Assembly (NCBI GenBank): GCA_026770705.1
Contig: JANJGN010000026.1
Coordinates: forward strand, 40,052,001 to 40,116,000
DNA length: 64,000 bases
Reading direction: 5' to 3'
From: Isurus oxyrinchus
Lineage: Eukaryota
This document shows, piece by piece, positions 5,936 to 59,901 of this stretch. Positions within the stretch are counted from its first letter, which is position 1; each line of letters begins with the position of its first letter. Below the pieces are notes generated by a model. It was not told where the DNA came from. It saw nothing but the letters and a program-made list of their open reading frames with translations, and made no database searches. The position numbers and the translations under genes are program-made.

Positions 5936-7287
5936 ATTCAAGGGAGACGTCAGCATTATCGCTGCCAGTAAACGGATTCTCTCAGACAAGGGGTGGGGGG
6001 GGGGGGAGGGGGGGGGGAGTTGTGGGGAGGTGGAGGGGGAGGGAGGTGGCGGCGGTGTTGGGGTTGGGGGAGGTGATGAATACAAACAAGTAAAGCAGCT
6101 GAAACAAAATGTAGAATTTCCTTAAACATTGAACACCAGCAAGGTAAAATGGAAACCACATAGACCTGTTGGTGTTGCTATAATAACTGCAGATGAATGT
6201 GAAAGAGATCCGGGAGTCCACGGGGCTCCAATTTACAGGGAATGCTGTCGAGAACACCTTGGATACTGACAGGAAAGGTTACCTTTTCATGCTATCTTGA
6301 CATTGGCAGGGCCAAAAGGATATCATATCTGTCGTCGCTGCTTAATTGCAGCCTTTGCCTGTACAGCACATGGACAAAACAAGCTTGTGGACGTTGCTTC
6401 TATAATAATATGCCCATTGAAAATGATGTAGCTCCACCTCTCTATGAGAACCATGTTAGCCCCAGGTTCGCGAAATGAACTCCAATATTATTATTTAACT
6501 GCAAATGCCTTCACCATTGATCTCGGATTGAAGTGTGCGGGTGAAAACAGACTTTGGATGACAGAAAAATCCCAACCCAATCGGAATTGTAATTCCTAAT
6601 GGCAAATGTATTTAATTTCAAACTTTCAAGTTGAGTAGCTGGCTTATTTGTAATCAAGTAAACTATGAAATTATTGGCATTAGCAAAGATAGAATATTAT
6701 GAGTTCAAATCGAAGGGCTGAAGTATTTTTTTTTCGTTAATTTAGATGAAAGCAAATGCCAGTCAGCATTCTTTGGGGCAATATGGCCAGTGGCAGACAC
6801 AACGAATTGGCACCGCCACCTGCTGGCCTGGTTTAAATGAACACCTTTGGGAGGATCTCGGAGATCATTGTTCACTATTTGTGTTCTCTCTGTTTTCATT
6901 ATTCGGTCTGATTCAGGATGACGAGGCGAACACCCCTCCCACTTTCAACCAAAGCTGAGCAAGAACCTCCCTCACAGTTAACACTGTGAGGTGGAGTCCC
7001 AGAAGGCTGCTTCTAGCGGGCACAGTGTTCTGGTGTTCGTTAAGATTGATGCACAACAGCACTGACTTCTCCAGAAGCAGCTACCCTGGCCTGGATCTGC
7101 CGACAGTTAATTTACCCAAGTTGATAGGACACGAAATGGTGGCAATTCTGGATTTCACACTCTATCGTCTATGTGAGTGTGGCACACATTATTAAGTGCC
7201 TATAATATCACAAATATTGTAATACATATAGTCTAACAGTATATTATAATATTATATTATATATTATGTTGTACAGTATAATATATA

Positions 7288-7548
7288 TTATTCGTTTATG
7301 GGATGTAGGCGTCGCTGTCTAGGCCACCAGTTATTGCCCATCCCTCCCTAATTGACCTTGATGAAAGGGCATTTGAGAGTCAACCACATTGCTGTGGGAC
7401 CAGAGTCACATGTAGGTCAGGCCAAATAAGGATGGCAGGTTTCCTGCCCTAAAGGGCATAAATGAACCAGATGCTTTTGAAGACAACCGACAGTCGTTTC
7501 ATGGACATATTCCCAGATTTGTATTGAATTCAAATTTCACTATTTGCC
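7288..7548 (-). mobile_element. tRNA-derived SINE with L2-like 3' tail (partial)
   Basis: Homologous to 15430-15790 and 31490-31845. Confidence 0.8.
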
Positions 7549-7575
7549 TGTTTTCGAAATATATGTATGTGTGTA

Positions 7576-7578
<3 letters not shown>

Positions 7579-7610
<32 letters not shown>
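7579..7610. repeat. (TG)n microsatellite
   Basis: Direct. Confidence 0.95.
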
Positions 7611-7613
<3 letters not shown>

Positions 7614-8234
7614 ACTATAATTATGCTATATTCTGTTGGATTGCATTTTCCAGTATTCTATCATCTTGTATTTTGTTATTTTGTATTTTATTATTGTATG
7701 TTATATGGAATTGCGCTATTTTTTTTACAAATTATGTACATTATATCTCATGCAACTGGCAGTAATGGAGTATGACAGTCAGCGGTTGTTGCAGAAGGAG
7801 ACATTGCATCATTGATCTGTTTTACCAAAGTAGCAGGACGGATCAGACGATATCCGGACAGAACAATGCAGCACCTGGTGAGAAGTACCAGCAATCGGAA
7901 CAAGATCAAGGCTTGGCCCAATTTAGCGTAGTGAAGTACTCAGAACGTTGGTGACGCTCGAGTGACAGATGCTGTTTCTGTTTCTTTGAGGCACAATGTG
8001 TCACCTCGCAGTCAGGATCATAGAAAAGCCTCCTGAGGGAGGGGGGGGTGACAGTTTGTAGCCTGTGCCCTTATCAAAGAGCTGGGAGTTTGATAACAAT
8101 CTCCCCGGAAAAGGGCCCTCCGTCTCCCAATAAGTGAATCCTGCCCTGATGATTGCTCACGCTACAAAATCAGACCAGAAGGGTCAACATCCATTTAGCA
8201 TTAATTTATTTCCTGTCAAAATAGATATCAAACA

Positions 8235-13886: not shown

Positions 13887-14029
13887 TGTATGATATCACT
13901 GCCTGCTATAACACCGCCCATATCATCATCCACTGCTGTCGTCAGTATGACCCGCCTTCTTTGCCGTTTATTATTGGAGAGTTTGCTGCCTTTGTTCTCT
14001 GATGTAATTGATTGGATGTGGGCGGCCCC

Positions 14030-14130
14030 GTGTTAGCTCAGAGACAGTGTGAGCCAATGTCACTATGAAGTAGTGAATGTAGGTGGCCAGGACATGAGTT
14101 CAGAGACAGTGTGAACTGGTGTTTGTGTGA
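14030..14130 (+). repeat. ~60-bp tandem unit upstream of the intronless V family
   Basis: gtggcc...gagctcagagacagtgtga.c twice; same unit at 16882-17080 and 38770-38860 (-). Confidence 0.65.
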
Positions 14131-14312
14131 ATCCTGAAGCGGTAAACTCCAAGGCTCGGCTTATTTCGCTAGTCCGACAGAAAAGCGCCTTGAGTTGGAC
14201 CTGAAGCGAATGTTTGGTTCCTTGTTCAATCTTCAGAATACAATATCCTTTTCCTGGCCGTAACCTGATCCCCGTGGACAATTGCTTCAGCTGGTATTCA
14301 TTTGATCTGATA

Positions 14313-14678
14313 ATGCTGTGGATTTACAGAGTCTGTTTTCTCTTATCCATTCTGATCTCCACTGAAGTGACCGGTGAAGATGAGGTGACGAAGCTCCCAG
14401 TGTGAATTGTTGTCAGTGAAGCGGGAATCGTACCCATGAACTGCACCATCATCAGTGGGATGAACGTGGTGCGTTGGTACAGGCAGCTCCCCAGTCAGCC
14501 ACCCCAACATCTTGTAGTGGCCACAAGAGGAACTGATCAACACGGGAGGACCTCTGCTTCAATCGGGGGAGACAACAAACTCAGTATCCTGGCCATGAGG
14601 GATGCGCAAGTTACAGACACTGCCACCTATCTAAGCGCCATGAGTGTAACAAACAAACTGAGAGCTCGTACAGAAATC
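14313..14678 (+). pseudogene. TCR V pseudogene with leader fused to V (no intron); damaged 23-RSS
   Basis: MLWIYRVCFLLSILISTEVTGEDEVTKLPV*IVVSEAGIVPMNCTIISGMNVVRWYRQLPSQPPQHLV...DAQVTDTATYLSAM; heptamer reduced to AGTG, then 23 nt and ACAGAAATC. Confidence 0.9.
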
Positions 14679-16881: not shown

Positions 16882-17080
16882 CTACTGGGTGTAGGCACCA
16901 CAGTATGAGCTCAGAGAGTGTCCGCAGGTCTCCGTCAAAGACTTTGAGTATGGGTGGCCCGGTTTGAGCTCAGAGAGCGTGAACTGTCTCAGTGAGAAAC
17001 ACTGAGTGTAGGCAGCCCAGTGTGAACTCAGAGAGTGTGAGCTGGTGTCCTGGAGAAAGACTGAGTTTTAGTGCTGCCTG
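16882..17080 (+). repeat. ~58-bp tandem repeat, ~3.5 copies
   Basis: actgagtgtaggcagcccagtgtgagctcagagagtgtga.. repeated. Confidence 0.8.
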
Positions 17081-17094
17081 TGAGTTGAGGGGCA

Positions 17095-17640
17095 AGGAAA
17101 GCGTTGCTTCAATTAAATAGAAGCTTGGTTAGGTCACACCTAGAGTACTGTGTGCAGTTTTGTCCCCCTTAACTCAGGAGTAGTATCGCTTCGAGGTAGT
17201 GCAGCGAAGGTTCACCAGACTTGTTCCTGGAATGGTGGTACTGTCTTATGAGGAGAGATTGGGGAAACTGGGCCTGCATTCTCTGAAGTTTCGAAGAATG
17301 AGAGGTGATCTGATTGAAACCTACAGAACACTTAAAATAATAGACAGGGTACATGCAGGTAAGATGTTTCCCCCCACTGGAGAGTCTAGAACCAGAGGAC
17401 ACAATTTTAACATAATGCGGAAGCGACCAATGGCAAAGATGAGTGGAAATTTCTTTACTCTGAGAGTTGCGAATCTTTGGAATTCTCCACCCCAGAGGGC
17501 CATGAAAGTTCAGTCTTTGAGTGTAGTTAAGGTACAATTGATAGATTTCCGATTAACAATAACGTAAGGGGTTATGGAGATAGTATGGGTAAAAGCCAGG
17601 GCAGGCTCGACAGGCTGAATGGCCTTCTCCTGTTCCTATT
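17095..17640 (+). mobile_element. CR1 LINE 3' fragment
   Basis: LVRSHLEYCVQF...VQRRFTRLVPGMVVLSYEERLGKLGLHSLKFRRMRGDLIE. Confidence 0.9.
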
Positions 17641-17848
17641 GTAAGCTGCCATTAGTGAGAAACATGGAAAGTGGAAGCTCCAGAGTAGGCACATTCCGAG
17701 CACATGTTCTTTCGGTTTTCCACACGAAGAAACCTCTGAGTTTGGTCTGAAGCGGGGGTCTAGCTGATTGTTAATTCCCCTGAATCTGCTCTCGTGCCCT
17801 GGTTCTCCGTGGACAATTCGGTCTACAAGCATTTCATCCGGTTCAATA

Positions 17849-18189
17849 ATGTTCCAGATTTACTGGGTTTTCGTGATGGTTTATGCACTTCTCAAGTGAA
17901 GCTGAGGTTGTGCAGCTCCCTGGGCGGCTGGTTCTCAGTGACGTGGGAATCGTATCCATGAACTGTTCAGCTACCGTCTCGTACTGGGACAGACTCCGCC
18001 CGTAACAGCCCCTCCAGCATCTGGTTATGGCCACATGTGGTACCGATCAACAAGGAAGGATCACTGTTGCAATCCGGTGAGTCAATAAATTTAGCACAAT
18101 GACCTTGAGGGACATCCGAATGACAGACAGCGCCACTTATCTCTGTGCCGTGAGGCCACAGAGTAGCAAACAGAGTCCGTACAGAAACC
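17849..18189 (+). pseudogene. Intronless-leader TCR V pseudogene (copy 2)
   Basis: MFQIYWVFVMVYALL../SEAEVVQLPGRLVLSDVGIVSMNC...QPLQHLVMAT...RMTDSATYLCAVR; stops; CACAGAG-17-ACAGAAACC. Confidence 0.88.
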
Positions 18190-28140: not shown

Positions 28141-28726
28141 CAAAAGTCACAATTTAGCGTCGTTCAAGGTAATACAATAATGGGAAGTACAGTCTAGCAG
28201 AAGATAACGGATCTGGATAATGGATGTATGAAATATTGCTGTCAGAAATAGTGATCACGCTCACATGTGGGAAAAAGTAAGATATCCAAGGGTACAATCC
28301 CTAAAGTGAAGCTCAGATTCATGTGTCGGATGCTATCCATTTGTATAAAACAACTGTCAGAAGATTCAAGCCAAGATAGCCACCGGCTGAAGGAATCGCC
28401 GTTGTGTATCAAACAGCCCAGCACCAGTTACACTGAGCGAGCCAGATTCGAGGCTCTGGGACTTGTGTTGAAGCTGAGAGGGAGCTTCGGCATTCATGGT
28501 GTCTGAGGTTGAAGGCTGCGAATGCGCCAGACCATCCATTATGTGACGTAAGTCTGTGGTCTGCGTGACATCACCTTGTAATCTTTGTGACATCCAACAA
28601 TCAGTGTGATGTCAGTCGGTCTGGGTTGAGGGTCAGAAACATCTTTCCAGAAGCTGATCTGGATATTGAGACCTCAGTTTAAGGGAATTAAAAGCTGATC
28701 AGAAGCAGGAAAGGCGGTCTAACCTG

Positions 28727-34422: not shown

Positions 34423-34934
34423 ATGTCGGTTATTACTTTTTATTCGTTCCTCACAACTGCAGCTCTCGTAACTGGTAAGCTTACAGCTGCAAAATCTCCT
34501 TGCAGGCAATGTGTTCTATGTTCACTATGTTTTGTCTCTGTTTCTAATGTGCCCCGTCACCTGATGATATTAAGTATATTAAAATGATGATAAAAGCTTA
34601 ACGTTCTGTATTTCTAAATTTCTACAGGTGTTAATGGTGCAGAGTCGGTATCACAGGAGCCGCTTATAGCGAAACATTTCGAAGGACAATCGGTAACCAT
34701 TAATTATAGCTACTCGGGCACTTATAGCTCATATTCCTTACAACTGTACCGTCAGGACCAGGATAAAGCCCCCAAATTCTTGATCTACATCCGTAACTAC
34801 GGGGATGTTGTCAGAGCAGAGGGCATAGGGATTCGATTTTCTGCATCGATCGACACTTCGAAAAGTGAGGGGAATTTCACCATCCGTGACTTGCTGCTGT
34901 CTGACAGCGCGGTGTATTACTGCGGGCTGAGAGA
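34423..34934 (+). CDS. TRAV/TRDV: Intact non-canonical TCR alpha/delta V (C23Y, W41L); leader 34423-34474, exon 34628-34934
   Basis: MSVITFYSFLTTAALVT|GVNGAESVSQEPLIAKHFEGQSVTINYSYSGTYSSYSLQLYRQDQDKAPKFLIYIRNYGDVVRAEGIGIRFSASIDTSKSEGNFTIRDLLLSDSAVYYCGLR; canonical splice sites; no stops. Confidence 0.93.
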
Positions 34935-34973
34935 CACAGTGACAGGAACCAGAGGGAGCCCCGTACAAAAACA
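34935..34973 (+). other. Near-consensus 23-RSS
   Basis: CACAGTG-23-ACAAAAACA. Confidence 0.95.
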
Positions 34974-35451
34974 CTGTCGCAATGTGATAAGGTGAATAGA
35001 ATAGGCGGCATACTGTGGAGAAACCAGAACTTCATTAAATTATCAGTATATCGAGCTGATTTCATATAAGTAACAAGCCGAGAGTAGCACATGCAGCATT
35101 GGAGAAGGCCTGCTCTGTTCCATTTACATCCAATATATTCTGAACATAATGCAAAAATGTGTTTAGAGATTTCGTAAAATTTTGAAAATTAAAGGTCTTA
35201 GGGCAGAAATGCTCAGCAAAGTATTTGACAGTGTGTTCTGGCCGTTACAGGAGGTACACACAATAAGAAAATGCAGCAGCAGGTATGTAACACTGCGGGT
35301 CGCTCAGGAAAAGAAGAACAGGCTTTGCATTTACATAAAGTCCTGCGCCCTGTGTTCAGATTTGCCGAAGTGCTTCCAGCAAAATTCCGAATGCATTCTT
35401 TTTCAATTTGGCTTGTGCGTTCTGTCGTTTTACAGACCAACCGGTGACAAT

Positions 35452-38227: not shown

Positions 38228-38577
38228 GGTTTCTGTACATATGCTCGTTGTACTGTGGTTTACGGCGCACAAATAGGTGGCCGTGTCTGTAACCCGGGCG
38301 CCCCTCACAGTCAGGACACTGAGCTTGTTGTCTACAACGATTGATCGCGTTGATTGGCTCCTCTTGTTGCCATCACCAGATGCTGGGGCAGCTGATTTGG
38401 GGGTTGTCTTTACCAACGCACAATGTCAAATGCAATAGTGATGGTGCAGTTCATAAACATGATTCCCGTTTCACTAACAATCACCCGCCCAGGGGGTTGC
38501 ATCACCTCATCTTCACATGTCACATCCGTACAGATCAGGGTGGAAAACAGCAAACAGGCTCTGTAATTCCGGAGCAT
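38228..38577 (-). pseudogene. Intronless-leader TCR V pseudogene (copy 3)
   Basis: MLRNYRACLLFSTLICTDVTCEDEVMQPPGRVIVSETGIMFMNCTITIAFDIVRW*RQPPNQLPQHLVMATRG...GARVTDTATYLCAVN; CACAGTA-14-ACAGAAACC. Confidence 0.9.
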
Positions 38578-39613
38578 TATCAGAGCACATGAAACACCAG
38601 CTGGACCAATTGTCCATTGACTTCGGAGTTAGAGCTAGGAGATGAATATTATATTCAGAAGAATTAACAAGGAGCAAAACACCAGCTTCAGGTCCAATTC
38701 AGAGGGAATCTTCTGTTGAATTAACTAAAGAGACCGGGTCTTGGAATTGACTCGCCCATATTCAATATTTCACACTGACACCGGCTAACGTATTCTGTGA
38801 GTTCATACCGGGCCGCTCACATTCAATATTTCTCAAAGATTCACACTGCTCTCTGATGGTGTGCATTGGTAACTGCATGGTACAGTCGTTCAAGTCAATT
38901 CCCGCCAATCTGCATTTCACAGGAGAGTTGTAAATGAGAACAGCTATTCCCTTCATCCTTGTATAGCACCCCTATCTGGAGAGGCCCTGTACCTCGCTTT
39001 CAATTGCAGCATTCAACGATCCCAGTGTATCTTCCTCCCTCATTCTAGTTGAATCTTTATTCCACAGTGTGATCACTTTCAGTGTGACAACAGGAATCTC
39101 TCTTGACATGCGTCTCAAAAGCTCATTTTATAGTTTAAACTCGTGTGCTGCCCCACATGGATGCAGTGCAAAATTTTCTGTTGGATATTTGCAACACACC
39201 AACATTGGCAACTCATAAAAGTATATTTCGCTAAAACAAATACAAGTTGGCCACCAGCGTTAAATTAATGCCTCTATTTCGTCATTTGTTCGTTTAATCA
39301 CATTTTCTCAATGAAGTTACTGGACAATTGTGAGTCTGGAATTGCCCTGTCACTGAAAACAACATGGTATCTCACTACCTTCTGGCGGCGGCGACATTGC
39401 ACTACAGGGTGCTTCTTTACAACACTTGTTCGCCTTCGGAACTCAGGAGTGAGTTCAACAATTTCCGGTTCGAAACTCTACTGCATTTATACTTATTCAT
39501 CTTTTTAGTTTAGACGGCACCTGGTGGTGAGGAATCTGATTTTCATAAGTTTACTTCATCCAGGCAAAGCTACCCGTCTGTTTTATCTTTTCCTGTTGTA
39601 GCGTCTTTATCAG

Positions 39614-59333: not shown

Positions 59334-59372
59334 GGTTTTTGTACGGGGTTCTAGCTGTGATCTAACGCTGTG
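59334..59372 (-). other. 23-RSS
   Basis: CACAGCG-23-ACAAAAACC. Confidence 0.95.
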
Positions 59373-59901
59373 CCTCATTGCACAGTAATACACCGCCCCG
59401 TCCTCCACACTCAGTTCGCTTATGTTGAGGTAACCGTTCTTTTGAGACATATCAGCAGCTGCCAGATACCGTCCTGAAAGTTCATTTTTCTTCAGTGCTA
59501 AGACATTGGTAATAATCCATGTTGGTGGCTGTGCCGTCTGCTGCCGATACCATTGCATGTAGTTTAGATTCCGATCTGTATATTCACAGTCTAATTGCAC
59601 CGAACCCCCTTCCGACGCCGTTATTGCGACCGGGGACTGAGTTACTGGATCTGCGCATCGTCCGCCTGTGAGGTAGAGGAATGAAATATCAAGCGGTTAA
59701 ACAGTGTTGATCTCAATTTGTTTGTAGCTGTTTGGGTTTGCAGAACCTCCTATCTACCTAGCTGTCCATACTATGGATATTTCTGATCGTGAATTCTATT
59801 AAATACTATCGCAATCTCTGTACACTAATCTACCGATCTGCCTTGATTAACTAAATCCAGTACTTACTGTCGAACAGCGCCGTCAGTATTATCAGCAACA
59901 T
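59373..59901 (-). CDS. TRAV/TRDV: Intact TCR alpha/delta V segment (leader 59868-59901, exon 59373-59665)
   Basis: MLLIILTALFD|SGRCADPVTQSPVAITASEGGSVQLDCEYTDRNLNYMQWYRQQTAQPPTWIITNVLALKKNELSGRYLAAADMSQKNGYLNISELSVEDGAVYYCAMR; C23, W41, C104 present. Confidence 0.95.

Follow-up and report, generated by a model that had tools for sequence, protein, structure and literature searches.

A shark V-segment family with signal peptide and V domain in a single exon, and the probable replacement of its ancestral leader

We describe in Isurus oxyrinchus a family of V segments in which the signal peptide and the V domain form one exon directly followed by an RSS, and in which the ancestral leader exon persists as a relic 113 nt 5΄ of the present ATG. 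From sequence comparison it is probable that the family replaced its leader, and the new signal peptide seems to have come from DNA of the old intron, an intron origin that we read from position only. A split leader is regarded as near-universal among antigen-receptor V genes, the exceptions being in birds and in the marsupial TRMVj, and retroposition is the usual explanation. If the replacement is real, it would constitute a second, non-retro route to single-exon V segments, and the rise of a signal peptide from intron DNA could here be dated; how avian TRAV1 came about would become directly testable through an upstream relic, and annotation pipelines that demand a splice acceptor would overlook such genes or label them wrongly. 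It implies neither a new receptor type nor a new immune mechanism.

The V array and the single-exon family

The window, that is, the whole stretch of 64,000 nt that was analysed (C26:40052001-40116000, in a genome of 4.98 Gb), contains V segments in both orientations, at least 16 in all. Since their relatives are cartilaginous-fish sequences and their best solved-structure matches (PDB) are mostly TCR alpha chains, we read the window as a shark TCR alpha/delta V array; C-alpha or other constant exons were not located in a search with Pfam PF09291 (best E 0.73). The initial annotation had pointed to three V segments, with ATGs at 14313 (+), 17849 (+) and 38577 (-), whose leader runs into the V domain without an intron. 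In all three the ATG is present, the hydrophobic stretch is collinear with the V domain, the intron is absent and the RSS remnants that had been claimed can be recognised, every one of them broken. All three are pseudogenes with stops, frameshifts and broken RSS (Table 1): copy 2 has a net loss of 14 nt in the leader, which puts it out of frame with a V that has more indels and stops, and copy 3 has a TAA past the conserved Trp and a 13-nt deletion in FR3. As to the accompanying statement that all other leader-bearing V segments here have a phase-1 intron, none of the 13 other V segments of the window that were inspected has a contiguous in-frame leader; in 9/13 a phase-1 AG acceptor is seen together with a GT donor, the others showing the acceptor alone (two, one of them with N upstream), decayed sites (one) or a leader out of view (one). 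The V segments at 34620-34975 (+) and 59340-59890 (-) have split leaders and a near-canonical 23-RSS; in the V at 34.7 kb the first Cys is missing, and so is the conserved Trp.

Table 1. Features of the three family copies of the window (positions are those of the window)
Feature	Position	Strand	Remarks
Two diverged ~59-bp units, 5΄ of copy 1	14021..14131	+	GC-box-like GGGCGG; alignment
Relic leader exon, copy 1	14201..14258	+	first codon CTG, not ATG
Present signal peptide, copy 1	14313..14375	+	21 residues, one exon with V
V domain, copy 1 (pseudogene)	14376..14639	+	TGA at 14403; second Cys to Ser
Broken 23-RSS, copy 1	14640..14678	+	6-nt deletion takes CAC of the heptamer; nonamer ACAGAAATC at 14670
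59-bp tandem repeat, 5΄ of copy 2	16884..17066	+	3.1 copies; TRF
Insertion between repeat and upstream block, copy 2	17095..17640		missing in L040 and L051
Relic leader exon, copy 2	17747..17800	+	first codon CTG; internal stop
Frameshifted leader and V with broken RSS, copy 2	17849..18189	+	CACAGAG at 18157, 17-nt spacer, nonamer at 18181
Leader and V with broken RSS, copy 3	38228..38577	-	heptamer CACAGTA, 14-nt spacer
Relic leader exon, copy 3	38634..38691	-	best preserved of the window's relics; reads LKLVFCSLLILLNIIFIS
About 1.4 units of the 59-bp repeat, 5΄ of copy 3	38755..38835	-	alignment

Intact members were found elsewhere in the genome, which upholds the claim of a single-exon leader and V family flanked by RSS. 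From the loci fetched after genome searches in which the best 40 of 78, 59 and 65 candidates were scored, so that the counts are lower bounds, we took 56 distinct copies (identical sequences merged); three further copies are pseudogenes, and about two thirds of the copies examined are decayed. Eighteen of the 56 are intact, with an ATG, a 21-residue signal peptide, 110 open codons, Cys/Trp/Cys and a 23-RSS of the form CACAGTG-23-ACAGAAACC. Because these 18 keep an open frame, the three conserved residues and a canonical RSS, the leader-V frame is not due to chance. Eleven of them lie on C26 and seven on smaller contigs, which may represent another haplotype. All five proteins compared with PF07686 score above its cut-off. 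With the split-leader V segments of the same array the family shares the V-set domain with first Cys, Trp and second Cys and the 23-bp-spacer RSS that mark TRAV/DV segments, and the second part of its leader aligns with that of the sister family described below; its coding leader, in contrast, lacks the phase-1 intron, and since birds hold known exceptions, the family can still be placed in TRAV/DV. A protein search for longer forms found none, and a metagenome scan found no locus. No RNA data set was listed for an intact copy, and four contig sets that may be RNA gave no cover at 80%, results that speak neither for nor against expression; no transcript with the leader or a 5΄UTR was found.

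A cassette of four genes recurs on C26, in six copies whose members stand at nearly the same distances each time (about 25, 3.6 and 20 kb), and the three window copies belong to it; this indicates segmental duplication and bears out the earlier proposal of spread by DNA duplication. At L065:3963, which lies on C26 at about 40.042 Mb and 10 kb ahead of the window, a usually intact cassette member has a small frameshifting deletion in its leader, which could be real or an assembly error.

The sister family, the relic exon and the present leader

In a V-domain tree of 63 rows and 91 columns the family is well delimited (support 99/97) and is joined by a sister family with support 89/94, in a clade that also takes in a Callorhinchus V and a Scyliorhinus V. 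The sister family has an ATG exon of the MKLSF type followed by a GT...AG intron of 174-197 nt, longer in some members. Since the nearest tree relatives of the family have a split leader, its single-exon state was likely derived within sharks. Two traces of the sister type lie in the window: at 28265-28322 (-) a leader exon (MNLSF..., GTGAGC donor) is well preserved and keeps the motif upstream of it, but the 1 kb viewed after it holds repeat-like DNA in place of a V, and at about 7000-8030 (+) there is a decayed V pseudogene with a damaged leader exon, a long intron and an RSS remnant at 7992.

The sister leader exon has a counterpart in the single-exon family, in front of the present leader. 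In almost every copy the relic reads GAC-CTG-AAG and then some 19 codons, most of them hydrophobic, where the sister exon has GAC-ATG-AAG; its first codon in the 56 copies is CTG in 50, CGG in two, TTG in two, CCG in one and unassignable in one, and in no case ATG, its ancestral donor is absent and a TAA end is usual. The best ungapped match of seven out of seven sister exons falls at -113, against none of nine control exons, and the exon of a third lineage (L111, see below) is likewise best at this position (15/500). The profile identity of sister exon and relic is 0.47, with a background of 0.26 ± 0.04 and with 0.52-0.55 for the V exons; this value was reached in 2/2000 column shuffles and in 75/2000 codon shuffles, the latter a modest support, and without the first four codons in 82/5000 shuffles. 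The shuffle test is not a strict one, since identities of 0.48-0.50, with 0-1/200 shuffles, were also reached by three control intron ends that are unrelated, and protein-level scores against the relic overlap (control leaders up to 7, sister leaders -2 to 15). A blind scan of both strands of the entire window with a matrix built from sister-family leader exons alone ranked first the true sister-type exon (28322-) and second to fourth the three relics, which scored 19.3, 13.9 and 13.0, the next-best site scoring 12.3; among 15 copies scanned, the matrix peaked at the relic in 13. The motif was first spotted by eye, and the copies, being related, are not independent. Local alignment (+2/-2) and nhmmer, both too insensitive for introns and for the relic, did not detect it.

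The shared upstream region and the tandem repeat of the initial annotation, given there as about 200 and 60 bp, are real, the former measuring about 175-190 nt and the latter ~59 bp. The repeat behaves as a variable minisatellite of the promoter region; in copy 2 it has been pushed about 550 nt off by an insertion, perhaps a LINE tail, and in some pseudogene copies (L040:1-700) it reaches roughly ten or more units. Its unit resembles a motif 5΄ of the sister family's ATG: in 5/10 copies, the best family match of the motif that lies 113 nt before the sister ATG falls within this repeat, at a distance of 93-102 nt from the relic on its 5΄ side, in a post hoc comparison with three training sequences. 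That the upstream block might be a transposon was rejected, all 40 matches listed falling on V-array contigs. The spacer from -54 to -1 is conserved beyond synonymous sites (0.19 vs 0.35), and within it a mini-ORF, ATG-TGA, stands at -13 from the ATG in 16 of the 18 intact genes.

Several observations speak for the present leader as a real one. Its ATG is kept in 53/56 copies, residues -3/-1 suit signal peptidase by the textbook rule in all intact copies (V-x-G in 16, M-x-A in one and V-x-S in one), and the mature chain starts with E/K-D-E-V. Between two subclades dN/dS is 0.45 for the V, 0.57 for the new leader, 0.73 for the relic and 1.06 for the spacer, point values that would suggest that the present leader evolves as coding sequence. 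In the scored intron-bearing families a YAG always stands at one fixed phase-1 position; none of the 18 intact copies has an AG at this ancestral acceptor position, and no phase-1 AG is common to their coding leaders. The AGs at +8 and +17, in phase 2, were discarded as acceptors, being present in just 14/18 and 10/18 intact copies, and the idea that the leader is the translated polypyrimidine tract of a live intron was rejected because no phase-1 AG is conserved and because the ATG and its spacing are kept across species.

Origin of the present leader

We propose, as the likely course of events, that the ancestral leader exon was silenced and that DNA of the old intron supplied a new signal peptide. 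The old exon would correspond to -113 to -56 and the old intron to about -55 to +52 (107 nt), and an in-frame ATG ahead of the T-rich 3΄ part of the intron would have opened a usable hydrophobic peptide; the acceptor, the donor and the old ATG would then have decayed, in an order that we leave unspecified, and the family would have spread by tandem and segmental duplication. In the present genes, the CCAAT/GC-box region that surrounds the 59-bp repeat is predicted to drive transcription; translation would start at the ATG, which has an A at -3, the peptide would be cut after V-x-G, and RAG would join the V to a J segment, only the J-to-C splices being needed. The new leader shows no similarity to sister introns above controls. 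A leader imported from another V family was rejected, the best offsets (+18/+20) being non-collinear.

The initial annotation had put forward intron loss by recombination with the cDNA of a spliced transcript. Such a loss would have fused the old exon to the V, as in TRMVj-type genes, and left nothing upstream. What is observed is the reverse: the sister-type exon matches at -113 and not at 0, and the present leader is no closer to it than background (identity 0.31 vs 0.26 ± 0.04; BLOSUM -9 to -16), so that the sequences disfavour cDNA-mediated loss. A broader form of this idea, which we regard as unlikely although it fares best among the alternatives, is that the intron was lost precisely, by cDNA or in the genome, perhaps after duplication of the leader into an L-L-V unit, the present leader being a diverged exon fused to the V and the relic a spare. 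From the present ATG to the ancestral junction there are indeed 52 nt, a normal first-exon length, with an ACNG end as in several spliced leaders; L-L-V units occur in a newt, according to the accessible part of PMC12698447, and the comparison of relic and new leader peaks exactly at offset 0. That peak (identity 0.365) is not significant, however (759/1000), and it is the non-coding relic that is nearer to the sister exon, rather than the functional leader.

Another explanation, less probable still, is that a non-coding first exon is spliced from a GTAA at about -173 to a CAG at -23, removing the relic, with the signal peptide and V remaining in one exon; this is compatible with leader replacement as an addition to it. 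The intact copies have the GTAA in 18/18, the CAG in 16/18 and a branch-like CTRAY at -49/-54 in 18/18, which together with the constrained -54 to -1 spacer would fit such an intron, and the candidate donors score 2.4-8.2. Against it, the -23 site scores from -8 to +3 bits while 13 true leader acceptors score 6.6-18.5 (leave-one-out), and its AG is missing in two intact genes; the upstream frame holds stops, which leaves no coding exon there.

We find it improbable that the upstream element has kept a function, be it that of a leader exon initiated at CUG or that of a regulatory upstream ORF: its 20 codons are open and hydrophobic in most intact copies and a 9-nt deletion in one of them stays in frame, yet the larger subclade has the TAA end and lacks the donor, two intact genes start with CGG, the hydrophobic core is gone in 3/17 and the dN/dS of the relic is 0.73-0.81. 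Least probable of all is the ancient intronless TRAV lineage that the initial annotation offered as its other possibility, here common to the family and the single-exon avian TRAV1, since the free tree joins the family with intron-bearing shark and Callorhinchus V segments, several supported branches away from two avian TRAV1 (QVQQ) domains, and the relic links it with the sister family and its split leader, although a clade common to it and avian TRAV1 was not rejected in an AU test (p 0.164, lnL 16.1 lower; 53 rows, 10 dropped).

Translated intron ends can mimic leaders: 5 of the 16 leader-intron ends examined read as an in-frame ATG with a hydrophobic run of at least 2.2, which also provides raw material for a new leader. 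Intron 3΄ ends of this kind, with an in-frame ATG and a hydrophobic peptide, are seen in the intron-bearing V segments L066, L068-L070 (the second V in each), L067 and L097, and gene predictors appear to call such ends leaders, for example in P0047 and P0111. A related third V lineage (L111-L121; C38, C42, C49, C100, C131, C146, C326 and C26 at 5.96 Mb) lies outside the main array, mostly as pseudogenes, some in tandem at a period of about 2 kb. It has an MK-type exon upstream and an in-frame hydrophobic peptide ahead of the acceptor, and in L119 and L120 the acceptor is lost, an open in-frame hydrophobic peptide precedes the V and the RSS has 22 bp. The lineage is a possible intermediate, an illustration and not a proof, its copies being mostly pseudogenes; the homology of its cryptic leader to the present leader is not above controls.

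These observations lead us to a wider and more tentative view of leader replacement, to which we give somewhat less than even credence: that a functional, RAG-rearranging family swapped its signal peptide, leaving a fossil exon upstream, and that the new one arose de novo, in the 3΄ half of the leader intron, which is rich in T, before the lineage parted from carpet sharks; that cryptic in-frame leaders of other leader introns and the acceptor-less copies of a related lineage represent the intermediate steps, leader introns being a standing reservoir of signal peptides; and that the same process might explain avian TRAV1.

Relatives in other sharks and comparison with known systems

The same leader, ungapped, is found at the protein level in two Chiloscyllium punctatum gene models (GCC41311.1, GCC20499.1) and in one JGI contig ORF, and two of these three proteins, the JGI ORF among them, appear to continue into RSS-like sequence, as would be expected if leader and V formed one exon. 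The lineage also seems to be present among the nurse shark TCR-alpha clones of Ott et al. 2018 (PMC5931798), where in the accessible Table 1 source data (supplement rows 385-403) 7 of the 19 'aV9' rows match the family by eye, with the same FR2 and short CDR2/FR3 pattern, and one further row matches the intron-bearing sister family. By this match to TCR-alpha clones the lineage would be rearranged and expressed in nurse shark, the rows being trimmed to the V, without leaders. One row, counted by hand, has about 60% amino-acid identity across species, and the criterion for TRA V9 in that paper is at least 70% nucleotide or 75% amino-acid identity, so that we speak of lineage homology to TRA V9 and no more. 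The label 'aV9' differs from our family in lumping several lineages, at least four unrelated ones by eye in these rows, and in the accessible material it comes without germline exon structure or leader. In the literature searched, whose coverage is incomplete, we found no cartilaginous-fish V segment described as having its leader in the V exon, and the split leader is termed universal in the accessible part of PMC12227049; the exon structure is apparently undescribed, in a V lineage already known as expressed.

As described in the available text of PMC2275272, the marsupial TRMVj has no intron and comes already joined to D and J; its origin is put to retrotransposition or to germline joining with intron deletion. 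The shark family shares with it the missing leader intron; unlike TRMVj, it is unjoined, keeps a 23-RSS directly 3΄ of the V and does not have the ancestral leader fused to the V. A closer likeness in form is offered by chicken TRAV1 and TRGV1, whose leader and V lie in a single exon according to the part of PMC10972964 available to us, which bears out the avian precedent named in the initial annotation. In both the birds and the shark a one-exon signal peptide and V with a retained RSS make up a multigene family amplified by duplication, with many pseudogenes. Avian TRAV1, however, falls in another V lineage in the free tree and has near its mature start a QVQQ that is missing from the shark family, and an upstream leader relic, which that part of the paper does not mention for the avian genes, is present in the shark family.
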